Part shown: positions 15,992 to 43,315 of the stretch, piece by piece
How positions within the stretch are numbered: position 1 is the first letter of the stretch
Layout of the letters: every line of letters begins with the position of its first letter
NCBI GenBank assembly: GCA_964440985.1
Contig: CAYTWE010000001.1
Span: 16,875-80,874, forward strand
DNA: 64,000 nucleotides
Direction of reading: 5' to 3'
Origin: an uncultured Lentisphaeraceae bacterium
GTDB lineage: Bacteria > Verrucomicrobiota > Kiritimatiellia > RFP12 > UBA1067
The notes under the pieces: generated by a model
The model's input: only the letters and a program-made list of their open reading frames with translations
What the model was told of the DNA's origin: nothing
The model's database searches: none
Made by a program: the position numbers and the translations under genes

Positions 15992-18433
15992 TCAGCCTTC
16001 GCGAACCTCCACCGCAAGCGACGTCTTCAGTGCGTCCGCAATCTTTGCAAATGCGGCGTTCACCTCGTCGTCGGTCAGCGTTCTGTCATCCGCGCGGAAC
16101 GTGAGGGAGTAGGCGCGGCTCGACCTGCCTTTCCCCAATTCCTTGGACGCAAATATATCAAATAGCCTTATGCCGGTCAACTCCTTCGGCGCAACCTTGC
16201 GAATCGCCTTGACCACCGCCTCATGCGTCACGCCCGCATCCGCAACGAACGCAATGTCGCGTGTGACCGGCGGGAACTGCGGCACGGCGGAGACACGACC
16301 TGTCGCACCGATGCGCTTGAGCAGTGGCTTGAGATCCAACTCGGCAAGCGCCAGCTGGGTCGCGAGGCGGAACGGGTGGCGAAGTTTGTCGGAGACGACG
16401 CCGAGGACACCGGCGGGGCGTCCGTTGATGACCACTTCAAGCGCCACCTGAAACGCGGGATGCTCAACGCGGCGGAACTCCGTCTTGCCGACCTTCACCA
16501 GTTTCACAACGCGCTCAACCGCACCCTTCATCCAAAGGAGAGCCTCCTCCACCGAAACAGGCTTGACACGCGCCAACGCATCGCGTCCCACCGGACCGAA
16601 GAAGCCCATCGCAAGCCTTGAAGCCTCAAACGGCTTGCCGTCCTTCTGCCCAAACACCCTTCCGATCTCGAAGAGTTTCCCCTCCTCCAGTCTGTGGGCG
16701 GCGTTGCGTCCAAGGCTCTGGTACAGCTGCGGCATCAGGGAATCGCGCAACACTCCGTATTCGGCGCTCACCGGGTCCGGCAGAGGCAGCCTTTCGGGGT
16801 TCGTCCCGAACGGCGCAAGGTCGGAGGCGGAGAGGAACGAATAGTGCATCGCTTCGGAGAATCCAAGCCCGGTCAGGAATGAGCGCAACGTCTCCTGCGC
16901 CCGGAACGGAGCATCATCAAGCGACGACACCGACGGAGCGGACGGCATCGTGTCCGGAATGTTGTCCAGACCGTAGAGACGCGCCACCTCCTCGACGAGA
17001 TCCGCCTCAAGCGAAAGATCCCATCGCCAGCTCGGAATGGCGTATGTCGCATATCCGTCGCCTGAGTCCACGCGCTTCAACCCGATCGATTCGAGAATCT
17101 GAAGTATCCTGTCGTCGGGGATGTCTATACCGATCAGACGACGGGCGCGTTCAAACACAATCTTGACTGGTTCGTTGAACGAGAACGACTCATCAACCCC
17201 GGCGACAGGGAACCGCTTCCGCCCGTCCGCATCAACAACGCCTTTGGCTATCACGGCACCGCCGTATTTCTGGAGAAGGTGCGCGGCACGGCGGCTCGCG
17301 AAGTCCGCAAGATCCTTGTCCACACCACGGATGTAGCGGTAGCTGGCCTCGGTTGCAAGCCCAAGTTTCGTCGACGAATATTTTGTCGTCCCTGGATCGA
17401 ACAGCGCAGACTCGATGAGCACACTGCTCGTTCCGGCGGCAATCTCAGAATCCTCACCGCCCATGACGCCGGCTACTGCGGACGGCTTCGACTCATCGCA
17501 TATGAGAAGCATGTTCGGGTCGAGCTTGCGCTCCACACCGTCGAGCGTCTTCATCGTCTCGCCGTCGCGGGCGGCGCGAACCACAACCTTGCGCCCGGCC
17601 AGCTTCGTGTAGTCGAACGCATGGAGCGGCTGGCCCAATTCCAGCATCACATAGTTCGTGACGTCAACAAGAAGTCCGAGTGAGCGGACACCGCACGCCT
17701 CAAGGCGCTTCACCATGAACTCAGGCGACGGCCCATCCTTCACCGATGTCACAACCCTCGCGGTGTAGCGCGGACATTTCGCGAAATCCTCCACCTCAAC
17801 CTTCACCTCGCCGTTGACGTCCGTATCGGATTCGACGAAGTCAGCCTCAGGCATCTTCAGCGGGCGTCCGAGAATTGCGGCGTACTCACGCGCAAGGCCA
17901 ACGACGGAGAGCGCGTCAGGACGGTTCCACGTCACCTCTATCTCGAACACGGTCTCCGGCTTTTCGCCATGCAGCACATCACGGAGGAACGCCCCCACAG
18001 GCGCATCCGGCGGCAACTCCATTATGCCTTCGTGCGTACCGCCCGGCAGGGCAAGTTCGCTTGAGGAGCACAGCATGCCGAACGACTCTACGCCGCGCAG
18101 CTTGCCCTTCTTGATCTTGAATCCGCCGTCAGGTATGACTGCACCGATCTTGGCGAATGCACTCTTCATTCCGGCGCGGCAGTTCGGTGCGCCGCACACG
18201 ACTTGAACAGTCTCCTTCCCGTCGGTGACTGTCGTCTTGTGCAGATGTGTACCCTCAATCACCTCGCACGTCAAGACTTCCCCCACGACAATCTCGTCGC
18301 AGAGCGGCGCAGGGCCGGACGTTTCTATCGATTCAACCTGAAGTCCTGCATGGGTCAGCCTGTCGGCAAGCTCTTCGGGCTTGATGTCATCGACCTTTAC
18401 ATATTCATTGAGCCAGCTTATCGGCAGCTTCAT
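15992..18433 (-). CDS. pheT: Phenylalanine--tRNA ligase beta subunit
   Basis: N-terminus MKLPISWLNEYV (compare E. coli MKFSELWLREWV); 813 aa with B3/4, tRNA-binding and FDX-ACB-like regions. Confidence 0.95.
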   Translation of the reverse strand: MKLPISWLNEYVKVDDIKPEELADRLTHAGLQVESIETSGPAPLCDEIVVGEVLTCEVIEGTHLHKTTVTDGKETVQVVCGAPNCRAGMKSAFAKIGAVIPDGGFKIKKGKLRGVESFGMLCSSSELALPGGTHEGIMELPPDAPVGAFLRDVLHGEKPETVFEIEVTWNRPDALSVVGLAREYAAILGRPLKMPEADFVESDTDVNGEVKVEVEDFAKCPRYTARVVTSVKDGPSPEFMVKRLEACGVRSLGLLVDVTNYVMLELGQPLHAFDYTKLAGRKVVVRAARDGETMKTLDGVERKLDPNMLLICDESKPSAVAGVMGGEDSEIAAGTSSVLIESALFDPGTTKYSSTKLGLATEASYRYIRGVDKDLADFASRRAAHLLQKYGGAVIAKGVVDADGRKRFPVAGVDESFSFNEPVKIVFERARRLIGIDIPDDRILQILESIGLKRVDSGDGYATYAIPSWRWDLSLEADLVEEVARLYGLDNIPDTMPSAPSVSSLDDAPFRAQETLRSFLTGLGFSEAMHYSFLSASDLAPFGTNPERLPLPDPVSAEYGVLRDSLMPQLYQSLGRNAAHRLEEGKLFEIGRVFGQKDGKPFEASRLAMGFFGPVGRDALARVKPVSVEEALLWMKGAVERVVKLVKVGKTEFRRVEHPAFQVALEVVINGRPAGVLGVVSDKLRHPFRLATQLALAELDLKPLLKRIGATGRVSAVPQFPPVTRDIAFVADAGVTHEAVVKAIRKVAPKELTGIRLFDIFASKELGKGRSSRAYSLTFRADDRTLTDDEVNAAFAKIADALKTSLAVEVREG

Positions 18434-19910
18434 CAGAAACCTCTTCCTTGTTTTCCTTCACCTCAGCGCCCTCGACGGCGCTCACCGCCTGCGCGGCATC
18501 CTCAACGACCTTCGCCTGTTCGCCCTTTTTCTGTGGCTGGTTGCGGAACTTCGGATTCTCCTCCGGCAGCGCAAGAAGACCGTTGAAGTACTGAATCACG
18601 TGCCCCTTTTCGACAAGCCAGCCAAGATGTCCCTTCATCTCCTGCGGAAGCTCGCCAACGCTGCAGAGCGGATGCTCTTCAACATACCGAACCACCGCGA
18701 CAAGCTCCGGTATCGCGTGCGACGTATCGAGAGGCACCGGCTTGGCCGCGCACACAAACTCCTGTCCGCGAGGTTCATTTGCCCTGAAGAACGAAAGCTT
18801 GCGGTGGTGGAACGCACCCCTGAGAGCGAAGAAAAGCGACGCGGGGAAACGGCGTTCACGCGTAATCGCGTCACGTACGGCGAACAGGTACGGCAGATCT
18901 GCGCTCTTGAGAGCCTGCTCAAGCGACATGTCCGAACTCTTCGCGACGCCCTTCAACTGCGGCATTATGTCGCGGCGAAACGCGGCTTCCGCCTGCTCAC
19001 GCTCGAACGCCGGAACTGTCGGCGTCTCCACCGCATTCTCACCGGCGGCATCCTGCGGCGCGGCTGCGGTCTCCGCCACCTTGAGACGGTAGACGGTCTT
19101 CTTGGTTGCACTCTTCCGCCAGGCTTCGACGGAATCGGCGTCACGCACGGTCTCAAGTCTGGCGCGGTACGCACTTTCGTCCATGCCAAGCTTCTGCGCC
19201 ATTGCGCTCACGGCGGCGTTGTAGCCGTGGAGGTTCGGCGGTCCGATCAGTTCACCGGTGATTCCGCACTTCATGACGCATCCGAACTGCCCGGACGGGG
19301 GATCGACCTCAATCTCCTCCGCAGTATAGTAGTCGCCAAGATGCGCCGAAAGCAGATGGGCGTCAAGCGCCTCGGAGGTGGCGCATGAGAATCCGCAGGC
19401 CTTGCATACGTGGAAACGTGTTTCGGGATCCTTCGGCGTGACCTTTACATGGCAGGCCTCCGGATGGTCGAGGAAGAACAGCGCAATCTGCTTGAGCGGA
19501 TACGCAACGTACCCCGTCTGCATCTTGCGGATGATGCCGCCAAGCTCCTTCTGTCCCGGAAGCACCCTGACCTCGGCATCCATGGGCTTGACAGGCTCGC
19601 GTCTTGCGAATCCGCGGCGTCCGCCATCCTTGCCGTCGCGGCCAAATGGCTTGCGCGGACGGTCGCTGCGGTCGAACGGCTTTCTCTGCCTGTCGTCGCG
19701 GCGCGGCGGGCGGTCGCCGGATGGATTTGCGTCATTGAACCTGCGCGGTGGACGCGATTCGCGCGATGGGCGATCATCGTCCCCGTCGCGGAATCCGCCA
19801 CGTCCGGCCTTGGCGACAACCTTGTCACCGGCAGTCCATGACGGCGCAAAGTCAAACGAACCGAGTGAACTCAGATCGACAGCCTGACCATCCATGTTCT
19901 CTTCCGCCAT
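18405..19910 (-). CDS. Hypothetical protein with an N-terminal Arg/Asp/Pro-rich low-complexity region and a single C2H2-type zinc-finger motif
   Basis: 501 aa. Residues ~30-110 read RPSRESRPPRRFND..RPPRRDDRQRKPFDRSDRPRKPFGRDGKDGGRRGF. CKACGFSCATSEALDAHLLSAH has C-x2-C-x12-H-x4-H spacing. Acidic C-terminal tail. Overlaps the pheT start by 29 nt. No recognisable enzymatic motif. Confidence 0.6.
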   Translation of the reverse strand: MAEENMDGQAVDLSSLGSFDFAPSWTAGDKVVAKAGRGGFRDGDDDRPSRESRPPRRFNDANPSGDRPPRRDDRQRKPFDRSDRPRKPFGRDGKDGGRRGFARREPVKPMDAEVRVLPGQKELGGIIRKMQTGYVAYPLKQIALFFLDHPEACHVKVTPKDPETRFHVCKACGFSCATSEALDAHLLSAHLGDYYTAEEIEVDPPSGQFGCVMKCGITGELIGPPNLHGYNAAVSAMAQKLGMDESAYRARLETVRDADSVEAWRKSATKKTVYRLKVAETAAAPQDAAGENAVETPTVPAFEREQAEAAFRRDIMPQLKGVAKSSDMSLEQALKSADLPYLFAVRDAITRERRFPASLFFALRGAFHHRKLSFFRANEPRGQEFVCAAKPVPLDTSHAIPELVAVVRYVEEHPLCSVGELPQEMKGHLGWLVEKGHVIQYFNGLLALPEENPKFRNQPQKKGEQAKVVEDAAQAVSAVEGAEVKENKEEVSDEAADKLAQ

Positions 19911-21953: not shown

Positions 21954-24041
21954 TCAAGTCGCGGGAACGCCCGCCGCAACATCGCCCGCAGGCGCAAGCA
22001 CTCCGCCATCCTTACCGGGTTCGCCAGCGTACAGGATCATCCCCTCGGAGACGCCTACGCTCATCTTGCGCGGCGCAAGGTTGGCGACGAACAGCACGTC
22101 GCGACCGACCAGCTCTTCAGGCTTCGGATATGAACCGCGTATGCCGCTGAAGATGGTACGACGACCGAGCGAACCGGCATCCAGCTCGAACTTGAGAAGC
22201 TTCGAGCTTTTCGGCACCGTCTCGCAGGAAAGCACCTTGCCGACGCGAAGATCCACCTTCTCGAAATCCCCGAACGCAATCTCAGGCTTCAGAGGCGGCA
22301 CAGGCGCAGCCGACACTGCCGCCTTCGCCTTGTTCTTCGATGCACGCGATTCATGGGAGACTTCACCGCTTGATGCGGGCTTCACCTTGGCCGCCTCCAC
22401 CATCGCCTCGACCTGCTCCGGCATGACGCGTGTGGCAAGATACTCGTACTTGCCGATGGATGCGTTCTCCAAGGTCTTCTGGGCGTCGTCCCAACACCAC
22501 GCGGACTCGCCGAACAGCCTTGCGGCCTTTTCCGCGTAGTCCGGAAGTATCGGCTTGAGGTAGACCGCAAGAATCCGGAACACGTTGAGCGTGGCGGTGA
22601 GCGTGATGCGCGTCGTCTCCGCGTCAGTCTTGCATGTGAGCCACGGCTGGCGACGGTCGAAATACTCGTTCGCGGCATCGGCAACCTTGGCAATCTCCAC
22701 CGGAACCTGCGAGAAGCGCCGCGCCTCGTAATGGGCGGCGATCGTCTCTGCCCTGGACTGCGCCAAGGCCACAAGAGCCTTCCCCTCCTCGTCAAGCGTA
22801 CCGAGCCGTCCGCCAAGAGCCGGCACCTTGTTGAGCATCTGCGCACCACGCGATGCGAGATTCGTTATCTTGCCGACGAGATCGGAGTTCACCCTGAAGG
22901 TGAAGTCCACAAGGTTGAGATCCTGGTCGTCTATCGTACCGGGCGCCTTGCAGGCGTAGTAGTATCGCAACGCCTCTGCGGGAAGGTGGTCGAGATACGT
23001 GCGGGCGTTGATGAACGTCCCCTTCGACTTCGACATCTTCTCGCCGTTGACGGTGAGAAAGCCGTGCACAAAAACCTTGGTCGGTGTCTGGAAGCCGCCG
23101 ACATGGAGCATTCCCGGCCAGAAGAGACAGTGGAAGCGGATGATGTCCTTCCCGATGAAATGGTATATCTCAGGAGCATCGACCGCCGATGGCGCGTCGC
23201 CAGACGGCCACCATTCCTCAAGCCGTTCGCCGTGGCTCTTGCACCAGTTCGCGAGCGAAGCGATGTATCCGATGGGCGCATCGACCCACACGTAGAAGAA
23301 CTTGCCGGGATGTCCCGGAATCTCAAATCCGAAGTAGGGGGCATCGCGACTTATGCACCACCCGCGCAGAGGCTCGCTGAACCATTCAAGGAGCTTGTTG
23401 GACACATCGCTCGTCGTGTGTTCCGGAAGCCATTTGCGCAGATACTCCTTGAACGGCTCAAGCTCGAAGTAAAGGTGTTCTGAATCCTTCACGGTCGGGA
23501 CGCTGCCGCAGACGGTGCAGTGCGGATTCCCCAGCTCCTCGGCGGCGTATGTGCTGCCGCACTTGTCGCAGCTGTCGCCATACTGCCCTTCCGCTCCGCA
23601 TTTCGGACATGTCCCCTTGACGAAGCGGTCCGGCAGGAACATCCCGCATTTCGGACACCACAGCTGCGGCGAAGTCCTGGTCGTTATCGCCCCGCTCTTC
23701 TCCATGGCGGCAAAAAAGCGTTCGGAGAGTTCCTTGTTCTCGGCGGTGTTCGTGGTGTAGTAGTTGTCGAACGCAACGCCGAAGTCCGTGAAGTCCTTGA
23801 GATGCTGCTCATGGCTCCGCGCAATCAGCGTCTCCGGCGTGATGCCCTCGTTCCGGGCACGGATCATCACCGGAGTGCCGTGCGTATCGTCTGCGCACAC
23901 GTAGACGCAGCGGTTGCCGCGCATCTTCTGGAATCGCACCCAGAAATCGGTCTGAAGATACTCGACCAGATGACCGAGATGGATATCCCCGTTCGCATAG
24001 GGGAGTGCGCTGGTGACAACAATCTTCCGTTTTTCCGCCAT
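21954..24041 (-). CDS. metG: Methionine--tRNA ligase with a C-terminal tRNA-binding (EMAP/Trbp111-like) domain
   Basis: MAEKRKIVVTSALPYANGDIHLGHLVEY (HIGH motif), KMSKS and zinc knuckles (CPKCG..CDKCG); 695 aa. Confidence 0.95.
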   Translation of the reverse strand: MAEKRKIVVTSALPYANGDIHLGHLVEYLQTDFWVRFQKMRGNRCVYVCADDTHGTPVMIRARNEGITPETLIARSHEQHLKDFTDFGVAFDNYYTTNTAENKELSERFFAAMEKSGAITTRTSPQLWCPKCGMFLPDRFVKGTCPKCGAEGQYGDSCDKCGSTYAAEELGNPHCTVCGSVPTVKDSEHLYFELEPFKEYLRKWLPEHTTSDVSNKLLEWFSEPLRGWCISRDAPYFGFEIPGHPGKFFYVWVDAPIGYIASLANWCKSHGERLEEWWPSGDAPSAVDAPEIYHFIGKDIIRFHCLFWPGMLHVGGFQTPTKVFVHGFLTVNGEKMSKSKGTFINARTYLDHLPAEALRYYYACKAPGTIDDQDLNLVDFTFRVNSDLVGKITNLASRGAQMLNKVPALGGRLGTLDEEGKALVALAQSRAETIAAHYEARRFSQVPVEIAKVADAANEYFDRRQPWLTCKTDAETTRITLTATLNVFRILAVYLKPILPDYAEKAARLFGESAWCWDDAQKTLENASIGKYEYLATRVMPEQVEAMVEAAKVKPASSGEVSHESRASKNKAKAAVSAAPVPPLKPEIAFGDFEKVDLRVGKVLSCETVPKSSKLLKFELDAGSLGRRTIFSGIRGSYPKPEELVGRDVLFVANLAPRKMSVGVSEGMILYAGEPGKDGGVLAPAGDVAAGVPAT

Positions 24042-24082
24042 TGCCGTGCCCTCTCTTCCTTGTGTCGTACTGTGCCGCCGAA

Positions 24083-26116
24083 CTACTTCGTCAGCAGACG
24101 AAGCGCCCCCGTCGGACAGGCGTCAACGCACATATGGCAGTCTTTACATCCGGAAATCGCCTCCGGAGTGTTGAACTCCGGCTTGATCACCGTCTTGAAG
24201 CCGCGTCCCACAAGACCAAGCAGACCCTTCTTCGCCTTCTCTTCGCATACGCGGACGCAGAGGTTGCAGGTGATGCACTTGCGCTGGTTGCGTTCGATGC
24301 ACACGAGGGTGTTCTCCACGAATCCTGGGTGGAACGCCCCGCGCAGACGCTTCGTGTCGGTGCGGAGCAGATTTGCGTAGCGGATGAGCCTGCAGTCCGC
24401 ATAGTCATGGCATCCACATTCAAGACACCGCTTCGCCTCGGCCATGGCGACTTCCGGCGACAGCCCAAGGTTGACCTCCTTGAAGTCGTGTCTGCGCTCT
24501 TCCGCAGGACGCTGCGGCATCACCGCCCTCGCAATGCGCTCGCGGTCGGCAAAGTCCTTCTCGGTAAGGTCGCGTTCAGAGATGACAGGCTTGACCGGAC
24601 GGTACTCGCCACCGGCAAGATATGCGTCAACGGCAAGCGCGGCCTCGTTCGCCTGCGCAATCGCGCCGATCGCTATGCCTGCGCCCTTGTTCACGGTATC
24701 TCCGCAGGCAAACACGCCTGGCAACGTCGTCGCGAAGTTGCCTTCATCTGCGGCGATCGTTCCCTTGGGGGTCTGCGGAAGCGCCTCAAAGCCGGCAGGG
24801 TCGTTGCGCTGCCCGATGGCGGCGATGACGCTGTCGAGGGCAATCTCCTCGAACTTCCCCTCCACCGGCACAGGCTTGCGCCGTCCACGTTCATCCGGCT
24901 CACCAAGCTCCATCACCTGAAGGCGCATTCCGGACACCTTGCCGTCGCACCCGAGGATCTCGTCAGGAGCGCAGAGGAACTTGAACTTCACTCCCTCCTC
25001 CTCGGCCTCGGTGATCTCCACATCCTCTGCCGGCATCTCTTTGCGGGTGCGGCGATAGACGACAAACACCTCTTTTGCGCCAACGCGCACCGCCGTGCGG
25101 CAAGCATCCATAGCCGTGTTTCCGCCGCCGACAATGGCGACGCGCTCGCCTATGTCGGGAGCCTGTCCGGTCACGACTGCGCGGAGGAAGTCGATTCCGC
25201 CCCACACGCCTTTCAGGTCTTCGCCCTTCACGCGCATTCCGGTGGACTTCCATGCGCCGTTCGCGACGATCACGGCGTCATAGCGCGCCCTGAACTCGTC
25301 AAACCCCGCATCACGTCCGATCTTGAAGTTGTTGACAAACTTTACGCCGAGCGACGCTATGGCATCGGTCTCGGCCTTGAGGATCGCCTTCGGCAGACGG
25401 TATTCCGGAATGCCGTAGCGGAGCATTCCGCCCATCTCGGGCATCTGGTCGCAGACCGTGACATCGTGTCCGCGCTGCACAAGCTTAAACGCCGCAGTGA
25501 GGCCGGCAGGTCCGCCGCCGATGATTCCGACTTTCTTGCCGGTTGGAGCCGACACCTTGATGGGATGCTCACCGCCGTTCTCGCGCACCTGATCGGCCGC
25601 AAAGTATTTCAGCTGGGCGATGGAGATCGGCGCCTCGACAAGACGGCGGCGGCAGGCCTTCTCGCACGGATGCGGACATACCCGGCCGATCGCCGCCGGC
25701 AGAGGAAACGTCTCCTTGATCGTCGCCACCGCATCGGCGAAACGCCCTTCGGCTATCTCCTTCACATACTTCTGGCAGTCTGTGTGGGCAGGGCAATTCA
25801 GCTTGCACGGTCCCTGGCAGTCGCCGTCATGGTCGCCCATGAGCAGTTCCAGCGCAAGGCTGCGGGCCTTGAGTGCGCGTTCGCCGTTCGTGCGCACGAC
25901 CATGCCCTCGGAGACCTTCGTCGCGCAGGCGCGGAGCAGTTTCGGACACTTCTCGACCTCAACCACGCACACACCGCACGCGCCGTAGGGATTCATCTCC
26001 TTCATGAAGCAGAGATTCGGAATTTCGATTCCTGCCTTCTCCGCCGCCGCCAGGATCGTGGTTCCTTCCTCCACCGACACCTGGACGCCATCAATAGTCA
26101 AATTCACGGTTCCCAT
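24083..26116 (-). CDS. Multi-domain iron-sulfur flavoprotein: N-terminal [2Fe-2S] ferredoxin + His-ligated [4Fe-4S] (NuoG/HydA N-terminal type), fused to a GltD-like FAD/NAD(P)H oxidoreductase and a C-terminal 2x[4Fe-4S] ferredoxin (StnC/NfnB-like)
   Basis: MGTVNLTIDGVQV..CFMKEMNPYGACGVC (2Fe-2S); CQGPCKLNCP..CPHPCEKAC (Fe-S); two Rossmann motifs GIIGGGPAGLTAA and VAIVGGGNTAMD (GltD / pyridine-nucleotide-disulfide fold); C-terminal CIERNQRKCITCNLCVRVC..CKDCHMCVDACP. No [FeFe]-hydrogenase H-cluster motifs. Confidence 0.7.
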   Translation of the reverse strand: MGTVNLTIDGVQVSVEEGTTILAAAEKAGIEIPNLCFMKEMNPYGACGVCVVEVEKCPKLLRACATKVSEGMVVRTNGERALKARSLALELLMGDHDGDCQGPCKLNCPAHTDCQKYVKEIAEGRFADAVATIKETFPLPAAIGRVCPHPCEKACRRRLVEAPISIAQLKYFAADQVRENGGEHPIKVSAPTGKKVGIIGGGPAGLTAAFKLVQRGHDVTVCDQMPEMGGMLRYGIPEYRLPKAILKAETDAIASLGVKFVNNFKIGRDAGFDEFRARYDAVIVANGAWKSTGMRVKGEDLKGVWGGIDFLRAVVTGQAPDIGERVAIVGGGNTAMDACRTAVRVGAKEVFVVYRRTRKEMPAEDVEITEAEEEGVKFKFLCAPDEILGCDGKVSGMRLQVMELGEPDERGRRKPVPVEGKFEEIALDSVIAAIGQRNDPAGFEALPQTPKGTIAADEGNFATTLPGVFACGDTVNKGAGIAIGAIAQANEAALAVDAYLAGGEYRPVKPVISERDLTEKDFADRERIARAVMPQRPAEERRHDFKEVNLGLSPEVAMAEAKRCLECGCHDYADCRLIRYANLLRTDTKRLRGAFHPGFVENTLVCIERNQRKCITCNLCVRVCEEKAKKGLLGLVGRGFKTVIKPEFNTPEAISGCKDCHMCVDACPTGALRLLTK

Positions 26117-26131
26117 GACCTTCCGTCCCCC

Positions 26132-27889
26132 TTAGCCAACCACAACAGCACCAAACCGGCACGTCGCCGCGCAGGCGCCGCACTTGATGCATTTCGCCGC
26201 ATCGATCACATGCGGATTCTTGAGCGAACCGGAAATCGCGTTCGCAGGACACTTCCGCGCACACATCGTGCAGCCCTTGCACTTCGTCGCATCAATCGAA
26301 TACGTGCGAAGCGCAGCGCATTCGTGCGCGGGGCAACGGCGCTCGCGGATGTGGGCGTCATACTCGTCACGGAAGTAGCGGATAGTAGTGAGGACAGGGT
26401 TCGGGGCAGTCTGCCCAAGACCGCAAAGGGCGCCGTCCTTGATTCCGCGGCACAACTCTTCGAGCAGTTCCACGTCACCCTCGCGCCCCTGACCCTCTGT
26501 GATGCGCACGAGCGTCTCGTGAAGCCGCTTTGTGCCTATCCGGCAATGGACGCACTTGCCGCAGCTCTCCTTGGCCGTGAAGTCCAGGAAGAACCGCGCC
26601 ATGTTCACCATGCACGTACGGTCGTCCATCACCACCATGCCGCCGGACCCCATGATTGCGCCAGTTGCGCCGAGAGCCTTGTAGTCGATCTGCGTGTCGA
26701 GCAGGGACTCAGGGATGCATCCGCCCGAAGGACCACCCATCTGGACAGCCTTGAACCTGCGTCCGTCGCGCACTCCGCCGCCGATTCCGAAGATCACGTC
26801 GCGGAGAGTAAGCCCCATCGGCACCTCCACAAGACCGCCTCGGCGTATCTTGCCGGTGAGCGCAAACACCTTCGTTCCCTTTGAGAACTCCGTCCCCATC
26901 GCCGAGAACGCCGCACCGCCGTTCTGGATGATCCACGCGACGTTGGCGAACGTCTCCACGTTGTTGATGTTGGAGGGCTTCTCAGTAAATCCCTTCTCCG
27001 CGGGGAACGGCGGCTTGAGGCGGGGCATTCCACGGCTTCCCTCAAGAGACTCGATGAGAGCCGTCTCCTCGCCGCAAACGAACGCGCCGGCGCCGGCCTT
27101 GATGCGAAGTTCGCACGAGAAGTCCGAACCAAGTATGTTCTTTCCGAGCAGATTCGCCGCCGTTGCATCGCGAATTGCTTTCTCGAGACGCACAATCGCA
27201 AGCGGATACTCGGCACGCACATACACGAACGCCCTTGACGCACCGATCGCATAGGCGGCAATCAGCATTCCCTCGATGAGCGAATGGGGATCGCCCTCGA
27301 TGACGGCGCGATCCATGAACGCACCGGGGTCGCCCTCGTCGGCGTTGCAGATGAGGTACTTCTCGCTCCCGGCCGACTTCCTCGCAGCGTTCCACTTGAA
27401 CCACGTCGGGAATCCCGCACCGCCGCGTCCGGCAAGACCGGAGACCTTGATCTCCTCGATCACCTGCTCCGGCGACATCGGTTCGCCGCCGCTCTTTCCG
27501 AGAATCTTCGCGATGGCGCGATACCCATCCGCCGCACGGTACGATTCGAGCGACTCCGGATCGATCACGCCGCAGTGGCGAAGCGCTATGCGCGTCTGCT
27601 TTTCGAGGAACTGCCTGTCGTCATCCGAAATCTCAAGATCCTTGACACCGGAAAGATCGCCGCTCAAGGCAGCGGCGGCAATGCGCTCCGCATCCTTCTC
27701 CTGCACCCTCACAAGGCGGGCAGCCAGCGCGTCACCGTTGTAGAGATCCACAATCGGCTCAAGATAGCACATTCCGATGCATCCAGTGACGCCGATATCC
27801 TGCACCGTTCCGAGAGCTTCAAGAGCATTGCGCACCTTGCGCGCTCCGGCGGCGATTCCGCAGCTGCCTTCTCCTACCACAATTCTCAT
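26132..27889 (-). CDS. NuoF-like NAD(P)H-binding FMN/Fe-S subunit (HydB/HndC/NfnB-partner type) with an N-terminal thioredoxin-like [2Fe-2S] domain and C-terminal 2x[4Fe-4S]
   Basis: GLAGRGGAGFPTWFKW (NuoF FMN/NADH motif); ESCGKCVHCRIG (N3-type cluster); C-terminal CKGCTMCARKCP..CIKCGACAATC. Start set at MRIVVGEGSCG (ATG 27889), an ATGA overlap with the upstream gene. Confidence 0.85.
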   Translation of the reverse strand: MRIVVGEGSCGIAAGARKVRNALEALGTVQDIGVTGCIGMCYLEPIVDLYNGDALAARLVRVQEKDAERIAAAALSGDLSGVKDLEISDDDRQFLEKQTRIALRHCGVIDPESLESYRAADGYRAIAKILGKSGGEPMSPEQVIEEIKVSGLAGRGGAGFPTWFKWNAARKSAGSEKYLICNADEGDPGAFMDRAVIEGDPHSLIEGMLIAAYAIGASRAFVYVRAEYPLAIVRLEKAIRDATAANLLGKNILGSDFSCELRIKAGAGAFVCGEETALIESLEGSRGMPRLKPPFPAEKGFTEKPSNINNVETFANVAWIIQNGGAAFSAMGTEFSKGTKVFALTGKIRRGGLVEVPMGLTLRDVIFGIGGGVRDGRRFKAVQMGGPSGGCIPESLLDTQIDYKALGATGAIMGSGGMVVMDDRTCMVNMARFFLDFTAKESCGKCVHCRIGTKRLHETLVRITEGQGREGDVELLEELCRGIKDGALCGLGQTAPNPVLTTIRYFRDEYDAHIRERRCPAHECAALRTYSIDATKCKGCTMCARKCPANAISGSLKNPHVIDAAKCIKCGACAATCRFGAVVVG

Positions 27890-28374
27890 GATGCGGACTC
27901 CTCCTTGATCTTCCTGACGATCGCCCGCGCCTTTTCGGGCGTGAGGGAGCCGTACGCTGTTTCGTTGATCATCATGACCGGCGAAAGCGAGCAACAGCCG
28001 AGGCAAGCCACTTCCTTGAGCGAGAACAGTCCGTCCGCCGTCGTTTCGCCATCGCCTATGCCAAGCTCGTCCTGAAGCGCCTTGGCGATGGAATCCGCGC
28101 CGTTTACGTGACACGCCGTACCCTTGCACAGCATTATCAGGTTTTTGCCGACAGGCTGAAGCCTGAACTGGGTATAGAACGTCGCCACGCCCATCACCTT
28201 CGCAGGGCTTACCCCCACATGCTCCGCCACGGCGTAGATCACGTCCGTAGGCAGATAGCCATATATCTCCTGCGCCTTCTGCAGAATGGAGATCAGGGCA
28301 TGACCATCGCCCTCGAACTCCTTGAACACTGCATCAAGCCGCGTCAGATCGCTTTTTGCACACGTCTCACACAT
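27886..28374 (-). CDS. NuoE-like thioredoxin-fold [2Fe-2S] subunit (HydC/HndA type)
   Basis: CKGTACHVNGADSI...CLGCCSLSPVMMI gives the four Cys of 24-kDa-subunit-type ferredoxins; 162 aa. Confidence 0.85.
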   Translation of the reverse strand: MCETCAKSDLTRLDAVFKEFEGDGHALISILQKAQEIYGYLPTDVIYAVAEHVGVSPAKVMGVATFYTQFRLQPVGKNLIMLCKGTACHVNGADSIAKALQDELGIGDGETTADGLFSLKEVACLGCCSLSPVMMINETAYGSLTPEKARAIVRKIKEESAS

Positions 28375-28410
28375 CGACCGTCTCTTTTCTTTTTTTGAAA
28401 TAAAGTTGAA

Positions 28411-28440
28411 ATTATATCACAAGATGCCTCTATTAGTCCA
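28411..28440 (-). promoter_or_regulatory. Candidate promoter of the nuoE-like operon within an AT-rich island: TGGACT-N18-(TGa)TATAAT
   Basis: Minus strand: aaTGGACTaatagaggcatcttgTGaTATAATttcaac. The 28375-28492 stretch is strikingly AT-rich (tcttttctttttttgaaataaagttgaaattatatcac) relative to the genome. Confidence 0.4.
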
Positions 28441-28492
28441 TTCCCCATGCTCTAAATGGCACTTTACTGCATTATCGGCACAATAAACTGAA

Positions 28493-37858: not shown

Positions 37859-39529
37859 TCATTCACGACAGTCCGGGGGGCCAGACACTTCGCGCACACC
37901 GGGTGGCGGCTTGACGGTCTTGACAATCCTGTCGCCTTCACGCCGCCATTCGGCGACAATCGGCCCGTGCGGCGTCGGAACGCTACCTTTTGCGAAATCG
38001 ACTGATGACGGCGGAACTGGTTCGAACGCGAATGTCGCGTAGCCGGGCGAAAGCGGTCGCACTCCAAGCACATACGACGTAAGCAGCCCGGCGACCGCCG
38101 TATCCGGATGAGCCTCATCGCCCCATCCGGGCATCGCCACATCCATGCACTCGTACGTCGTGCGGCATCCCTTCCACTCCGGAGATATCACCGTGAAGAA
38201 GCCATGCTCCTCTATCGACTTCAGCGCAAGGTCGCCAAATCCGAACTCAAAGCGTCCACGCGCCGACAGCGCCTGAAACTTGCCGTGCCAGTTGCGCGGA
38301 AGCGCTGAGGCAAGCGTGGCCGCCTCACGTCTGTCGACGAAACGGACGGCAAGCGCAAGGGCATTCGCCTCAGTGGAGTATGTTCCATCCTCAATCGAGA
38401 ACGCAAACGCCCGGCCGTCTTCGCATCTGAAATCGCGTTTCGTCACAGAGGCGATGCGTTCCGCCTCACTTCGCCAAATCTTCGCATCCGCATCATGCCC
38501 CAACCACTCCGCAATCTCCGCAGAGTCGGAAAGCGCCTTCCAAAGCAGGATTTGCATATAGCTGCGGCGATGTAGCGACGTTGCGCCGAACCGGAGAGCC
38601 CCTGCGTTCTTGCAAGTCTCCTTCCGCTGAATGAACACCCCGTCGCGCACATTGCGCAGGAGATATCCGATTAGGCGCCGCAAATTCGGAAACAGATCGC
38701 GCATCAGCGCCATATCGCCGGTGTACAGCGCATAGTTGCGCATCACCGGCGCAAACCACGCGGCGAATTCATCCGACGCAAACGGTCCGTATTCGCCCGA
38801 TGCCGGCGACACTTTCGCCTCAGGGTACGGACAGGCCTGAACATAGCCTTCCGGCGTCTGCGCCAGCGCAAGCATTCGCAATGAACCCGGCATATACGGC
38901 GAATCGGATGCATACGCCGCGTACATGTTGAGATCCGCCCACCAGAGATCGCCGCTCCACACAAGCCTGTCGCGCTTTGCGCCATCAGAAAGATACGCGC
39001 ACAGCGTCTCCTCGCCGCGCTTCGGTATGGCAGCAAGCTGACATGTGCGCACACTTGCGCGCCACAGCGCATTCAGACGTTCATCTGAGCAGGAAAACGA
39101 GCCTTCAACCGGCTCTTCCGAATACGTGCATCTGTTCTCGAACCTGAAATCATCAATGTCAACGGACGCGCCTGGCGTATCTACGGCCACGCGCACATAG
39201 CGGACAAGCCCTTGCTGGAATCTCGCCCTGCATACGCCACCCGTCGTCACCGTGAACAGCTCAAAGCGGTCGGTAGATGACGGCGGAATCGGCAGCGGCA
39301 CATCCTTGCCAAGATAATCCGCACGTGTATCGTCCCAGAAGTCGCCCCTCTCCGTCATGCGATCAGGATGGTTGGCGTACGATATGCGCACAACCGCGCC
39401 TGACGCCCCGACAGTCACGGGCGACGCCTTGAACACTGCATAGCCTGCGGTTGCATCAGGGCCGAAATCAATGATATGCGGATGCCCATGCGACACCAGC
39501 GCTGCCAACAACAATCCTCCACAAAACAC
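37859..39529 (-). CDS. Secreted six-hairpin glycoside hydrolase, alpha-L-rhamnosidase-like (second copy in the window)
   Basis: N-terminal hydrophobic signal; RDRLVWSGDLWWADLNMY region resembling the GH78 catalytic (alpha/alpha)6 domain; 556 aa. Family not verified. Confidence 0.45.
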   Translation of the reverse strand: MFCGGLLLAALVSHGHPHIIDFGPDATAGYAVFKASPVTVGASGAVVRISYANHPDRMTERGDFWDDTRADYLGKDVPLPIPPSSTDRFELFTVTTGGVCRARFQQGLVRYVRVAVDTPGASVDIDDFRFENRCTYSEEPVEGSFSCSDERLNALWRASVRTCQLAAIPKRGEETLCAYLSDGAKRDRLVWSGDLWWADLNMYAAYASDSPYMPGSLRMLALAQTPEGYVQACPYPEAKVSPASGEYGPFASDEFAAWFAPVMRNYALYTGDMALMRDLFPNLRRLIGYLLRNVRDGVFIQRKETCKNAGALRFGATSLHRRSYMQILLWKALSDSAEIAEWLGHDADAKIWRSEAERIASVTKRDFRCEDGRAFAFSIEDGTYSTEANALALAVRFVDRREAATLASALPRNWHGKFQALSARGRFEFGFGDLALKSIEEHGFFTVISPEWKGCRTTYECMDVAMPGWGDEAHPDTAVAGLLTSYVLGVRPLSPGYATFAFEPVPPSSVDFAKGSVPTPHGPIVAEWRREGDRIVKTVKPPPGVREVSGPPDCRE

Positions 39530-39542: not shown

Positions 39543-41135
39543 TCAGTTTATGGCAACGTCCAACGTCGTCCCCTTCGTGAATGCGTACTGGAAGCGTCCG
39601 TTGTCCGATGCGACAAATGATTTCCCGGTGGCGGGAGCGAACACGCCAAGAAGGTTCTGCGTATACAGAAACGCAGACTCCCTGAACGCATAGGTGCTCC
39701 ACTCATGTCTTGGCTTCGCGAGCGGATTCGCGCATGGCGCATCCTCCGGCGACATCCCCGGCATGAAAAACGGCCTTGCGAGAAGCAGCACAACACCTTC
39801 ACCCTTCGCCGCCTCACATCTGAAATACGCATCCTGCCCGTTATCCACATCGTGTCCGGAATTGTCTATCCACACGAAGCGTACGCCATCCTCCACCCAC
39901 GCCGCCATGCGCTCCCGCCTGACGAAATCCCCTGGCCGGAGACGAAGTCTGCGCGGACGCGGATACGACGAGGAAACGATGCGAACCGCCGCCCCCTCCA
40001 CGGCAAACGACTTCGCGCCACGGCAACGCGACGGGAACACGCGATCACACTGTTCGCCGCCGCATCCGATGCGAAACACCTTCGTCTGGCTTCGGTAGGG
40101 CTTGACGGCAACAACGTCAATCAGCATCGACGCCGCAAGATTGATGCGGTTGAAACGATACATCGGCCGCAGGTTCTCCGGCCCGTTCAATCCATAGCTC
40201 TGCGTGATGACGTGCCGTACGCCGTTCTCCATCACATCGGCATCTAAATGCGCATGGCCGGCAAACGAACCCGCAATCCTGATGCGCCCTGTCTTTGCGT
40301 GGCGTTCAACGACGGCAAGCGCATCCGCAAGTCCGGGCGTAGTGCACGGCTCCGCGCTTGACCGCCAAAGGCCAAGATACGGATGCAGCGTCGCGTGAGA
40401 AAGGATAACCGCAGTCCAGCCATCCTTCAACTCTCCAAGGCTCCTGTCAAGGAAATCGACCTGACGCTGCGTCACGCCTACCCACGTCTTCCCCTTGGTG
40501 TTCCCGACGTTCAATTCAGACGTGTTGAGAAATATCACGCGGGTCATCTTGCGCGGGAAATCCCACAGGCCGTATCCGTCCACTGCATAGCGAAAACCCG
40601 AAGCGGACTCAAGCGCTGAATTGAAGAACCGGAAATAGTCGTCGGACGACTGGTGCCAGATGACGTTTCCGAGGTCGTGATTCCCGACAACATGAAGCGA
40701 CGGAACCGAGAACGTGCCGTATATGCGCCTCTCGCAATCCATTACCGCCCTTCCGAACGCCTCCGGCTCATCCTTCCACGTCTTCCTTCCGCGATCAAGA
40801 CCTATGTCGCCGAGATTGGCGATGAAGTCGGCGCCGAAGATTTTTGCCGCCGCATCTAAGGCATACTGGTGCACCATCCCGTCGCCCCAGTCCGGCGATC
40901 CGCCAAGCGACACGGTACCGGAATGGACATCGCTGACAACCGGGAACACAAGTGTCTCGTCAGCCCCTTTCCATTCGCAGAACCTTGCCTTCGCAAGCCT
41001 TATCTCACGCATCATCCAGTCGGGAATCGCGGGAGCGGCAGGCTTCCCTGCTTGCGATGCCAAAGCATTGGAGCCGAGCGCGACCGCCGCACCGGCGCCG
41101 GCCATCCCGATAACGGCCCTTCTTGTCATGTTCAT
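39543..41135 (-). CDS. Tat-secreted calcineurin-like metallophosphoesterase
   Basis: MNMTRRAVIGMAGAGAAVALGSNALA (twin-arginine signal); VVSDVHSG, LGDIGLD and VVGNHD metallophosphatase motifs. Start ATG 41135 with AAGGA upstream; ATGA overlap with the upstream gene. Confidence 0.7.
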   Translation of the reverse strand: MNMTRRAVIGMAGAGAAVALGSNALASQAGKPAAPAIPDWMMREIRLAKARFCEWKGADETLVFPVVSDVHSGTVSLGGSPDWGDGMVHQYALDAAAKIFGADFIANLGDIGLDRGRKTWKDEPEAFGRAVMDCERRIYGTFSVPSLHVVGNHDLGNVIWHQSSDDYFRFFNSALESASGFRYAVDGYGLWDFPRKMTRVIFLNTSELNVGNTKGKTWVGVTQRQVDFLDRSLGELKDGWTAVILSHATLHPYLGLWRSSAEPCTTPGLADALAVVERHAKTGRIRIAGSFAGHAHLDADVMENGVRHVITQSYGLNGPENLRPMYRFNRINLAASMLIDVVAVKPYRSQTKVFRIGCGGEQCDRVFPSRCRGAKSFAVEGAAVRIVSSSYPRPRRLRLRPGDFVRRERMAAWVEDGVRFVWIDNSGHDVDNGQDAYFRCEAAKGEGVVLLLARPFFMPGMSPEDAPCANPLAKPRHEWSTYAFRESAFLYTQNLLGVFAPATGKSFVASDNGRFQYAFTKGTTLDVAIN

Positions 41136-43315
41136 TTCCGGACATCCTTTCCGCAAGCGTTTCCGAGAATTATACCGGCAAGCCGCTCACGCGCCTTGCG
41201 TACCGCTTCCGGATTGCGCGTGAAGTCGGTCATCGAGCGGATGAGCGTTTTCGATATTTCCTTTACGGCTGCCGGATCTTTCGCGGCGGCCATCACAAGA
41301 TAATCGTAGTCCTCCGAGCCGTCGCGCAGATTCGCCAGGCGGATTGACGGCAGGATGCCATTCTTTCCGGGATATGCAAGCACCCCGTCCCCAGGCGCCT
41401 GAAGTCCGCTCCATGTATTCCATGCGGGGAACCACACATCCCGCTCATCAAGTTTCGGCTGGCTGCCGCTCCAGTAGTTTACGTTCCAGAAGAGAAACCC
41501 GTCTGAGCGATACAGATGCGTGAACCACGGGATGAGCCGCCCCTCCACCGTCGGATTCTCGTATGACGAGAAGTTGCAGTACGGATGGAACGGAGAGCAG
41601 CACGTGTACCACCAGACCTGACGCCCCATCCTGCGAAGCTCATCCGAGACGTCTTCGCGATAGATTGCGGTGAGAGGGGTGTGCCAGTCCGTTGCGGTCC
41701 AGAACGGAGAGACCTTGTCAGGATGCTGAACGCGATCTCTGTACATGTACGCGCTCGTGATGAGCGGCAGATCGGGATATACACCCTTAAGTCTTCTCCA
41801 CATCCTGTCGATGCCCTCGTAATAATCTGCTTCACGCTCGTCAAAACCGTAGATGCAGCATCCGTCAAGAAGGTTCCTTTTTCTGAGTTCCGCAACATAC
41901 GGCGTTAACGTGTTTGTCACGTACGTAAAAAACCCCTCCGAGAACACATCCTTCTTGGAGCCGTACACCACCCACGCCTGCCCCTTCGGCGGTGGCGGCG
42001 CAAGGTTGAGCAGGTTCACGTGCCGCTGCCCACGCGACTTGGCGTATGCGATATCCTCGATATCCGGAGGTGACGTGCGCGATATGTCAGTCCAGTCAAG
42101 CCTGTGGTCAAGCATCATGTCCATCGCCTCGCGACGCCGAACCTCAAACGATTCGGGGTAATGCCGCTTGATGAAACCATCCATGCAAGCGAACATCGCC
42201 GGAAAGGAAAACATCTTCGGAAGCGCAAAATTCCACACCTCCACGGCAACCGGAACCGTCTGCGAAAAACCGTCAGCGGCAACGAACTTCGCTTCGCACC
42301 TGTACGTCCCCGGCTTGGCGTCGCGTCCGGCGAAAACGGTAAGCCAGATGCCTTGCGTCGCTCCTTTCCTGACATCAACCGGCGCGGCAGGCAGCAGCAC
42401 CTCCGGAATCCACTTCTCGTGAGGATCAACGCCGCAAGGATGCGGCGCATACTCCGGACGGCGGGCAAGGTATCCCAACCGTTCCCACGAAATCGTGCCG
42501 TTGAGACGGTTCCCGGACGCATCCACCAGCGGCGTCAACTCTACGTTCAGCTCCTTCAGTTCACGCTCCGCACCTGTCGTGACAAGCACCTGCGCCGATT
42601 CGCGCTCGCCCTTCGCCAATCGCAGACACACGCTTGCCGGCGTTCGCCTGTCCTCATCCGCTGGGAACGTAAGCGGCGTCACCTTGCGCATTGAATCAGC
42701 CGTCCAGAGGCACACGCCATCCGGCGGCAAAGACGACACCGGCCCACATTTCGCCGCCCCGTCCGCAATCGGCTCATAGACAAACCTGCCAGCAGAGTGA
42801 AGCGACCTGGCGGGATACGTCACAAGCATCTCATCGCTCTCAGAGAACGGCCGTCCCGTCATGCGCCGCGCAGACAGCTGTACATGTCCGGGATCGCGAC
42901 GCTCAAGGAACACATTGCGGAAAAGAACCTCGCCGCCCGGCGCAAACGGGTCGCGGTAGAGGGCATAGAGCTTGATTTTCCGGACCGGAGAGCCGGGATA
43001 GTGCACAGATCCGGATTTCTCCCAGCCGTGCGTCCCCTCGGTGAACGTCGCAAGCAGTTTGTACGTAAACGTGCCGTCAGCGTGCTCGACATCCACATAG
43101 AGACAGTACTCCTTCGCGCAGGCATTCACCGCCTTCGATTCGCCGCCGAACCATATCGGTGAGCAGTCAGGAGATTCATACGTCCGTTCAATCACCGCCT
43201 TGGTGACTGATGGAGCAAAGGTTGCCGCAGAATCCGAAGCGATGCCGGACAGTGCTGCAGCTGCGGCAAGCGCGACAACGGCCGTCATCGTCTTCATATT
43301 GCAGCAACCCTTCAT
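41132..43315 (-). CDS. Secreted hypothetical protein, possibly a glycoside-hydrolase-like (DUF4091-type) enzyme
   Basis: Signal peptide (MKTMTAVVALAAAAALSG); 727 aa; Trp/Tyr-rich C-terminal half (FWNVNYWSGSQ..WFPAWNTWSG). No catalytic motif identified with confidence. An alternative start is at ATG 43297. Confidence 0.4.
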   Translation of the reverse strand: MKGCCNMKTMTAVVALAAAAALSGIASDSAATFAPSVTKAVIERTYESPDCSPIWFGGESKAVNACAKEYCLYVDVEHADGTFTYKLLATFTEGTHGWEKSGSVHYPGSPVRKIKLYALYRDPFAPGGEVLFRNVFLERRDPGHVQLSARRMTGRPFSESDEMLVTYPARSLHSAGRFVYEPIADGAAKCGPVSSLPPDGVCLWTADSMRKVTPLTFPADEDRRTPASVCLRLAKGERESAQVLVTTGAERELKELNVELTPLVDASGNRLNGTISWERLGYLARRPEYAPHPCGVDPHEKWIPEVLLPAAPVDVRKGATQGIWLTVFAGRDAKPGTYRCEAKFVAADGFSQTVPVAVEVWNFALPKMFSFPAMFACMDGFIKRHYPESFEVRRREAMDMMLDHRLDWTDISRTSPPDIEDIAYAKSRGQRHVNLLNLAPPPPKGQAWVVYGSKKDVFSEGFFTYVTNTLTPYVAELRKRNLLDGCCIYGFDEREADYYEGIDRMWRRLKGVYPDLPLITSAYMYRDRVQHPDKVSPFWTATDWHTPLTAIYREDVSDELRRMGRQVWWYTCCSPFHPYCNFSSYENPTVEGRLIPWFTHLYRSDGFLFWNVNYWSGSQPKLDERDVWFPAWNTWSGLQAPGDGVLAYPGKNGILPSIRLANLRDGSEDYDYLVMAAAKDPAAVKEISKTLIRSMTDFTRNPEAVRKARERLAGIILGNACGKDVRK

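Follow-up and report, generated by a model that had tools for sequence, protein, structure and literature searches.

We analysed a stretch of 64,000 nucleotides, here called the window, from a contig (CAYTWE010000001.1) assigned to an uncultured Lentisphaeraceae bacterium. It contains an operon of three minus-strand genes whose products resemble the subunits of the electron-bifurcating transhydrogenases known as StnABC and NfnABC. In the order in which they would be transcribed, the genes encode a NuoE-like protein of the 24-kDa type with a [2Fe-2S] site (stnA/nfnC-like; 27886..28374; 162 amino acids (aa), 17.3 kDa; PF01257), a NuoF-like protein of the 51-kDa type (stnB/nfnB-like; 26132..27889; 585 aa, 62.3 kDa; PF01512, PF10589 and Fer4) and a short large subunit (stnC/nfnA-like; 24083..26116; 677 aa, 73.1 kDa), which aligns to the structures 8oh5_C and 9bov_A and has neither PF04879 nor PF00384. 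This last property, the lack of a domain resembling formate dehydrogenase (an Fdh-like domain), is the feature that distinguishes the locus from the enzymes studied so far. Below, the three proteins are also called A, B and C.

The NuoE-like and NuoF-like genes overlap by 4 nt (ATGA), such that the ATG at 27889 lies over the upstream TGA (27888..27886), and 15 nt separate the NuoF-like gene from the large-subunit gene. A mechanical list of open reading frames (ORFs) starts the NuoF-like gene at a GTG at 28129, which gives a longer ORF. We nevertheless take the ATG at 27889, not the GTG, to be the true start, because it forms the ATGA overlap, because a ribosome-binding site (AAGGAGGAG) precedes it, and because the protein translated from it aligns with StnB residue 1 to residue 1. 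An earlier note, made from the sequence alone, had described the three minus-strand genes, their ATGA overlap and a gap of 41 nt to metG and then pcnB, and the ORF coordinates agree with it on each of these points.

When compared with all PDB sequences, the A, B and C proteins match StnABC of S. ovata (8oh5; A to 8oh5_A) with E=5e-56, 3.5e-258 and 1.7e-201, respectively, and NfnABC of C. saccharolyticus (Csac; 9bov; A to 9bov_C) with E=4e-58, 2e-245 and 9e-224. These two enzymes are followed by that of T. sibiricus (9n5u), and the HydABC hydrogenases, the formate dehydrogenases and complex I rank lower. Each of the three proteins thus has its best matches among solved structures in StnABC and NfnABC, which supports, by homology, the Stn/Nfn-type assignment proposed in the earlier note. 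Judged by homology and cofactor inventory, the locus is a Stn/NfnABC enzyme, and phylogenetically it lies within that family.

The smallest subunit matches PF01257 in Pfam with E=1.5e-53. Its [2Fe-2S] ligands (C83, C88, C124 and C128) are invariant in 64 homologues, as expected of a BfuC/StnA-type small subunit with a thioredoxin-like [2Fe-2S] domain. In the NuoF-like protein, Pfam identifies PF01512, PF10589 and a C-terminal 2x[4Fe-4S] dicluster ferredoxin. The complete protein comprises an N-terminal thioredoxin-like domain, a flavin mononucleotide (FMN)/NAD(H) site, an N3-type [4Fe-4S] cluster, a hinge/Zn Cys pair and the C-terminal 2x[4Fe-4S] domain. Pfam is silent on the N-terminal domain, which the earlier note had recognized as an extra thioredoxin-like domain, yet its whole length aligns with the thioredoxin-like domain of StnB. 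Support for that claim therefore comes from the full-length alignment with StnB, not from Pfam. This alignment has 64% identity over about residues 1-584, with all StnB Cys conserved, and C10, C37, C41, C106, C443/446/449/489, C519/524, C537-547 and C567-577 are common to StnB and 63 homologues. Non-bifurcating NuoF homologues lack the thioredoxin-like [2Fe-2S] domain, the hinge (Zn/B2) site and the C-terminal 2x[4Fe-4S] (PMC9304861). The window protein has, at the level of sequence, all of these parts of a bifurcating BfuB core, along with the NuoF module.

In the large subunit, Pfam finds Fer2_4 (aa 3-77), Fer4_20 (100-180), Pyr_redox_2 (195-489) and Fer4_7/Fer4_Nqo3 (607-672). The protein thus begins with a [2Fe-2S] domain (25886..26110, minus strand; aa 3-77; PF13510), whose ligands are C36, C47, C50 and C64. 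It continues with a GltD/NfnL-like domain for flavin adenine dinucleotide (FAD) and NADP(H), which carries two [4Fe-4S] sites (24617..25819, minus strand; aa 100-500; PF14691 and PF07992). The ligands in this domain are C100, C104, C108, C114, C147, C151, C155 and Lys170, and R240 and the motif YRRT (354-357) are present. At the C terminus there is a NuoG/HydA-type Fe-S module (24116..24427, minus strand; aa 564-667; Fer4_7 and Fer4_Nqo3), which consists of a 4-Cys [4Fe-4S] site (C564/567/569/575) and a 2x[4Fe-4S] ferredoxin fold (C614/617/620/624 and C657/660/663/667). The earlier note had placed the NuoG/HydA-type module at the N terminus; this is correct for the [2Fe-2S] domain, but the module is split by the GltD-like insertion and the rest of it is C-terminal.

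To assess ligand conservation, we aligned the window's large subunit with 79 members of a clade of similarly short proteins (described below) and with 114 longer homologues. The four ligands of the N-terminal [2Fe-2S] domain are conserved in ~100% of short and long forms, and C100, C104, C108, C147, C151 and C155 are likewise essentially invariant. All 12 Cys of the C-terminal module are conserved in 96-100% of the sequences. Lys170, which is kept in 79/79 short and 112/114 long forms, is an unusual cluster ligand that is reported to be strictly conserved in all StnC proteins, and roles have been described for K170, C114 and R239 of StnC (PMC10482914). The equivalent of R239 is R240 in the window protein; it is invariant in short and long forms, as are R355 and R356 of the YRR motif. 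The window protein therefore has both the Lys-ligated, FAD-proximal cluster of Stn/NfnABC large subunits and the on-path Fe-S chain, in which the ligands of the [2Fe-2S], 4-Cys and ferredoxin-fold clusters are ~100% conserved.

Two positions in the GltD-like domain differ in frequency between short and long forms. Cys339, which lies within GGGNTAMDaCRTA, a motif of the NADP(H) fold, occurs in 79/79 members of the short clade, and is Ala in 91/114 long forms. Cys114 is present in 57/79 short vs 17/114 long forms; in StnC, it modulates the Lys-ligated cluster (PMC10482914).

We also looked for domains that would indicate a different enzyme. There is no Pfam match in the large subunit to the Fe-hydrogenase large-subunit (H-cluster) domain, and HydA matches span only its residues 2-121. 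Similarly, PF00384, PF04879 and PF01568 are absent according to Pfam, and matches to formate dehydrogenase alpha subunits span only residues 3-129. The earlier note's statement that the operon contains no H-cluster or molybdopterin motif is consistent with the Pfam search of all three proteins, which finds neither domain.

The NCBIfam model nearest to the large subunit is NF009454 (PRK12814, 'putative NADPH-dependent glutamate synthase small subunit'), and the match stays below cutoff (621 bits vs a cutoff of 916; residues 1-630). This match is one of several reasons to consider that the operon might encode a Bfu-type complex that uses a third substrate other than NADP(H), e.g., an NAD(P)H-dependent sulfur/polysulfide or oxygen reductase, or a source of electrons for a glutamate-synthase-like partner. 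GltD-like modules supply electrons to varied partners, and a sulfur oxidoreductase was the first role ascribed to NsoABC of T. litoralis, a close homologue of Stn. However, a later reinterpretation makes Nso itself an Nfn-type enzyme, the short form has invariant NADP(H)/FAD residues that are conserved and shared with enzymes for which an NADPH complex has been solved, and no gltB-like or sulfur-related gene is adjacent to the operon, whose neighbours vary between species. We therefore regard a different third substrate as very unlikely.

Characterised StnC and NfnA proteins are 955-1178 aa long, and are annotated even as formate dehydrogenase. Alignments with the window's large subunit cover residues 2-671 of the 1172-aa 8oh5_C and residues 3-670 of the 1178-aa 9bov_A. 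The window protein stops 10 residues past the last Fe-S Cys, where the Fdh-like domain would start; in long homologues, Pfam detects PF04879 and PF00384 from about residue 685. Among the features of Stn/NfnABC that we tested, the C-terminal Fdh/NuoG-like domain of molybdopterin fold, with its distal [4Fe-4S] cluster, is the only one that is absent. Consequently, the earlier note's view that the domain set matches StnABC applies to the core of the enzyme, and not to the C-terminal part, because known StnC/NfnA proteins carry an inactive FdhF-like domain of ~500 aa that is missing here. The same note had suggested that a molybdopterin domain in the large subunit would refute its assignment. Since StnC and NfnA carry such a domain, this rule would wrongly exclude the canonical enzyme.

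Motif counts give one [2Fe-2S] and five [4Fe-4S] clusters for the short protein, and six [4Fe-4S] clusters for StnC. Because these counts differ by one [4Fe-4S], we infer that only the cluster of the molybdopterin domain (C1 in S. ovata, A5 in Csac) has been lost, and that the first cluster of the dead-end branch (the A4 equivalent) has probably been retained.

We considered whether the missing domain could be encoded elsewhere or be missing through an artefact. A split gene, in which the Fdh-like part is encoded elsewhere in the window, was ruled out using tblastn with the tails of 30 long homologues, which found no Fdh-like coding sequence anywhere in the 64-kb window. An artefact of assembly or truncation was ruled out because the position of the stop is common to 80 independent species loci, as follows.

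The 120 closest database proteins to the large subunit are all 667-701 aa long, with 81-99% identity. The named members among them belong to metagenome-assembled genomes (MAGs) of Kiritimatiellae, and close relatives are entered in databases as 'FAD-dependent oxidoreductase' or 'formate dehydrogenase major subunit'. Scanning species-representative genomes, we obtained 80 loci related to the window's large subunit. In every one whose gene end is on the contig (one gene runs off the contig end), the protein stops within ~12 residues of the equivalent of window residue 675. When 114 long forms were included in a neighbour-joining tree, the short sequences grouped as a single clade (100/100 bootstrap). 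The order A-B-C is kept in 67 of the 74 loci with enough flanking sequence, with B-C gaps of -2 to 112 nt.

Within the short clade, low-GC Clostridia of the gut (Acutalibacteraceae and Oscillospiraceae; 57-66% identity) surround the high-GC Kiritimatiellae from rumen and gut. A similar picture emerges from the B and A proteins, with 70-77% identity to the Clostridia loci vs 64% to StnB. Because of this nesting, the tree points to a transfer of the operon between phyla, i.e., it seems to have moved between Clostridia and Kiritimatiellae. The phyla were assigned in part from GC content and from the named MAGs among the neighbours, because the labels of related MAG contigs are inconsistent. For example, the window's own species is labelled 'Lentisphaeraceae', a 92%-identical locus is labelled 'Limosilactobacillus gorillae', and others are labelled 'Clostridium sp. 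CAG:138' and 'Bacteroidaceae' (L007, L009, L059 and L080). These discordant labels are likely to be binning or labelling noise.

Short forms are not confined to this clade. We compared the 150 best representatives of clusters at 50% identity, of which 115 have 950 aa or more. A representative of 690 aa (P0216; L087/L088) is a genuine short form in a separate lineage, encoded in an operon of the form A(162)-B(584)-C(690). Another, of 682 aa (P0173; L090), is a stand-alone short form that is unrelated to the main clade and adjoins a dockerin protein; the 494-aa gene downstream of it is not Fdh-like. A third candidate, of 675 aa (P0242; L089), was dropped, as it is merely a fragment at a contig end. 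Given the short forms outside the main clade (P0216 and P0173), the Fdh-like domain was probably lost on more than one occasion, a loss that the operon probably survives.

The shared stop position, the monophyly of the clade, the retained A-B-C operon and the second lineage represented by P0216 together argue that the short architecture is real and under selection. They also bear on the idea that the operon is non-functional because the 677-aa gene is what remains of a full-length stnC after truncation and decay. Such an idea is prompted by work in S. ovata, where no active complex was recovered once this domain had been deleted. It is contradicted by the conservation data: the stop position is identical across 80 species in two phyla, and all 79 clade sequences keep every cofactor ligand. 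Moreover, no leftover Fdh-like sequence is found in the 64-kb window, and metG begins 41 nt downstream. We consider decay scarcely credible as an explanation of this locus.

In seven Kiritimatiellae species, the short large-subunit gene has no adjacent A or B genes in the available upstream flank (L008, L013, L026, L029, L036, L041 and L055, where L026 shares its contig, JAFWKK010000038.1, with L002). These stand-alone copies are scattered in the tree, and do not form a lineage of their own. When we clustered the neighbouring ORFs at the seven loci, no ORF family was shared, and we therefore dropped the hypothesis of a conserved alternative partner. In one of these MAGs, genes for RNase HII, ExbB and ExbD lie upstream of the stand-alone copy, and genes for a PALP enzyme and a class II tRNA-synthetase-like protein lie downstream. 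The simplest reading of the stand-alone copies is that the operon has broken up and that A and B are elsewhere in the genome. At a further Kiritimatiellae locus (L025; JAFXEA010000341.1), a distant NuoE/NuoF-like pair, with 39% and 52% identity to the window proteins, is located downstream of the short large-subunit gene; this pair may belong to another Bfu-type enzyme.

A different reading of these loci is that the large subunit functions mainly on its own, as an NADPH:ferredoxin (or other acceptor) oxidoreductase that does not conserve energy, similar to the Cac_0764-type FNOR or SfrB-like proteins, and that adjacency to NuoE/F-like genes is not obligatory. In addition to the seven loci and the unrelated P0173, all without adjacent A/B genes, this proposal could draw on the weak NADPH-linked ferredoxin/viologen activity of isolated StnC and NfnB in vitro, and on the retained ferredoxin-fold cluster of the former dead-end branch, which would sit near the new C terminus. 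Against it stand the tight operon at 67/74 loci and the full conservation of the N-terminal [2Fe-2S] and 4-Cys modules that link StnC to StnB; Cac_0764-type FNORs do not have such extra modules. Furthermore, the scattered stand-alone copies have no common partner gene, and the A/B genes of those genomes could simply lie elsewhere. A mainly stand-alone oxidoreductase thus appears quite unlikely.

Our preferred interpretation, to which we assign a probability of roughly 75%, is that the operon encodes a short-form Stn/NfnABC bifurcating transhydrogenase, which would be a complex of ~153 kDa (17.3 + 62.3 + 73.1 kDa) that is predicted to be unable to form the known NfnA-mediated tetramer. A tetramer of trimers of the known type is not expected because the Fdh-like domain is the core of the tetramer in the bacterial enzymes. 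The activity, direction and oligomeric state of the short-form complex are predicted by analogy.

In considering this interpretation, it is important to weigh several points that count against it. When the FdhF-like domain of S. ovata StnC was deleted, no active complex could be purified (StnABC: PMC7483475, PMC10482914). In Csac, the FdhF-like lobe forms part of the cleft that anchors the NuoE-like subunit (PMC11829005). Because the S. ovata deletion failed and because the lobe helps to anchor the small subunit, the short form must compensate somehow. The seven species without adjacent A/B genes raise the prospect that the large subunit might not be strictly bound to a complex. Structure prediction does not help in this regard: the AlphaFold2 model of the large subunit has a pLDDT of 64, with Fe-S regions below 50 (the alignment is shallow, at 81-91% identity), so that we drew no structural conclusions from it, and it adds nothing on assembly. 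A Foldseek search with this low-confidence model ranked 9bov_A, 8oh5_C and 9n5u_A at the top.

The mechanism that we propose for the bifurcating short form follows the published electron path of StnABC, NADPH-FAD-C7-C6-C5-C4-C3-B1-FMN, from which the Fdh-like branch is absent (PMC10482914), and every element of which is conserved in the window proteins. NADP(H) would react at the FAD of the GltD-like domain in the 73-kDa subunit. Single electrons would then pass through the two [4Fe-4S] clusters of this domain, one of them Lys170-ligated, to the 4-Cys cluster, the [2Fe-2S] cluster and one ferredoxin-fold cluster, before arriving in the 62-kDa subunit at its N3-type cluster and its FMN. This FMN and the neighbouring clusters of the B and A subunits would split or merge electron pairs between NAD(H) and ferredoxin, with ferredoxin served via the [2Fe-2S] cluster of the small subunit and the C-terminal 2x[4Fe-4S] domain of B. 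In a polysaccharide-degrading gut fermenter, the physiological direction would presumably be from NADH and reduced ferredoxin to NADPH, for use in biosynthesis. A saccharolytic lifestyle in the gut fits the other genes, as the window encodes glycoside hydrolases and a glycogen-debranching fusion protein.

A variant of this mechanism starts from the missing lobe. Its removal leaves the first cluster of the dead-end branch, which is 100% conserved, at the new C-terminal surface, where it could serve as an extra port for the entry or exit of electrons. Alternatively, the large subunit could function on its own; the seven stand-alone copies would fit an NADPH:ferredoxin oxidoreductase that docks reversibly onto the BfuBC core, in which case the enzyme could switch between coupled (bifurcating) and uncoupled modes. 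We mention this variant as a tentative and rather unlikely addition to the preferred interpretation.

We next describe the surroundings of the operon. Between the pgpA-like gene and the first gene of the operon there is an AT-rich intergenic region of 118 nt (28375..28492, minus strand). Its GC content is 35.6%, vs 59.2% for the window and 61.4% for the operon; the AT-rich island reported in the earlier note is thus confirmed, and its estimate of ~30% GC was too low. That note had also pointed to a promoter-like sequence, TGGACT-N18-TGaTATAAT, which we located at 28440..28411 on the minus strand. It consists of a -35 element TGGACT (28440..28435), a spacer of 18 nt and an extended -10 element TGaTATAAT (28419..28411), and it lies ~35 nt upstream of the NuoE-like ATG. 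With 10/12 consensus matches and the TG extension, it is the best promoter-like match in the region and the sole one at 10/12, in a scan that gave 2 sites vs 0.7 expected from shuffles. In many homologous loci of Kiritimatiellae, TGnTATAAT recurs 35-72 nt upstream of the first gene, and the -35 element is weak and variable. It is therefore plausible, given this recurrence, that the site is the promoter of the operon. We also searched 62 upstream regions for an operator of Rex, the NADH-sensing repressor. The best matches were no better than those in shuffled sequence (a mean of 3.9 mismatches vs 4.2), and regulation by Rex was dropped as a hypothesis.

Downstream, metG begins at 24041, 41 nt past the stop codon of the large-subunit gene, and pcnB follows. 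We found no terminator-like hairpin in this 41-nt gap (24042..24082, minus strand), and therefore read-through into metG is possible. The arrangement of pgpA, operon and metG/pcnB is seen solely in the window's own species and at no other related locus. Because of this restriction, we attach no functional meaning to the neighbourhood, and a functional link between the operon and metG, pcnB or pgpA was dropped. On the opposite strand, a 947-aa ORF (24041-26884, plus strand) is antisense to the large-subunit gene and part of the NuoF-like gene, and there are several further long antisense ORFs nearby. These are most likely artefacts of high GC content, not genes.

Other genes in the window drew our attention. 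A 1271-aa protein (47600-51415, minus strand) is a fusion of an alpha-amylase catalytic domain to the N- and C-terminal domains of glycogen-debranching proteins (GDE_N and GDE_C). Four ORFs on the minus strand have no Pfam match (E<=1e-5 or 1e-6): 43312-46458 (1048 aa), 39543-41156 (537 aa), 18405-19910 (501 aa) and 962-2278 (438 aa). The 1048- and 537-aa ORFs occur within a run of glycoside hydrolases that includes a GH123-like gene (41132-43315) and a rhamnosidase-like gene (37859-39529).

Electron-bifurcating transhydrogenases set the balance of NADH, NADPH and ferredoxin in anaerobes. The bacterial Stn/NfnABC enzymes studied so far are tetramers of heterotrimers; assembly is the only role understood for their Fdh-like domain, and experimental attempts to do without it failed. 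Contrary to what the S. ovata deletion would lead one to expect, a natural and conserved lineage shows that this domain is dispensable in evolution. The short lineage comprises Kiritimatiellae of the rumen and gut as well as Oscillospirales-type Clostridia, and numbers at least 80 species. With it, the known range of Stn grows to include the PVC superphylum and bacteria that degrade polysaccharides in the gut, and the annotations 'FAD-dependent oxidoreductase' and 'formate dehydrogenase major subunit' can be corrected. A system of ~153 kDa would also be a smaller model for studying the structure and mechanism of the Bfu bifurcation site.

With regard to previous work, a published inventory of StnC homologues covers proteins of 891-1241 aa and includes no member of the PVC superphylum, and a survey of the Bfu family places bacterial Nfn-Bfu enzymes 'mainly in the Firmicutes'. 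In the open-access literature, we found no description of a StnC of ~677 aa or of Stn in Kiritimatiellota, an absence that is not proof.

The closest relationships are to two bacterial enzymes. S. ovata StnABC (PDB 8oh5/8oh9) has the same set of three genes, with 64% identity for B and 48.6% for C (over StnC residues 1-671). The cofactor ligands of A and B, the [2Fe-2S] of C, the Lys170-ligated cluster, R239 (R240 in the window), the FAD/NADPH site and clusters C3-C7 are conserved. The host of StnABC is an acetogen, whereas the host of the window is a gut Kiritimatiellae fermenter. In the 1172-aa StnC, residues 683-1172 form a catalytically inactive FdhF-like domain whose distal cluster belongs to a dead-end branch, and this domain mediates a tetramer of heterotrimers (Kremp 2020, PMC7483475; Kumar 2023, PMC10482914). 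Csac NfnABC (9bov/9bp5) scores higher than any other structure with the large and the small subunit, with ~52% large-subunit identity, and it has the same BfuBC core, including the Zn site. Its NfnA (1178 aa) contains an Fdh/NuoG-like lobe that is the tetramer core and that, together with the NfnB Rossmann fold, makes the cleft holding the NfnC N-terminal domain; clusters A4/A5 are a dead-end branch, and the heterotrimer is ~214 kDa (PMC11829005).

More distant systems share only parts of the operon. The [FeFe]-hydrogenase HydABC and the NiFe-HydABCSL enzymes have a homologous BfuBC core, to the extent that HydB scores (667-698 bits) are just under those of Stn/Nfn B, and HydA and the window's large subunit have similar N-terminal Fe-S modules. 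However, the window protein lacks the H-cluster domain, and has the GltD-like FAD/NADP(H) domain instead. NfnAB/NfnSL (5jca, 4ylf) performs the same overall reaction, and its NfnB/NfnL is homologous to the GltD-like domain (E=1e-90), with a TM-score of 0.74, normalised to the target, against the low-confidence window model. In contrast, its partner subunit and mechanism are unrelated, its bifurcating cofactor is the NfnL FAD, and it has Glu at the position of Lys170. At our locus, the gene upstream of the GltD-like gene is NuoF-like, there is no nfnA-like gene, and Lys170 occupies the ligand position. The stand-alone Cac_0764-type FNOR also differs from the window protein, which has extra N- and C-terminal Fe-S modules and NuoE/F-like operon partners.

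A precedent for a reduced large subunit is archaeal. NfnABC of T. sibiricus and NsoABC of T. litoralis have a reduced C-terminal domain, and the T. sibiricus enzyme is active as a single ABC heterotrimer (9n5u; PMC12018979, PMC9304861). These Thermococcus enzymes catalyse the Stn/NfnABC reaction, but they are only ~40% identical, Zn replaces two NfnB clusters, and their large subunits (955-963 aa) still include ~280 residues of the NuoG/Fdh-like fold. Because T. sibiricus NfnABC is active as a single heterotrimer, neither the full Fdh-like domain nor tetramerisation is needed for bifurcation. Against this background, the short form is a naturally minimised architecture that is common in gut bacteria, and not a new mechanism.

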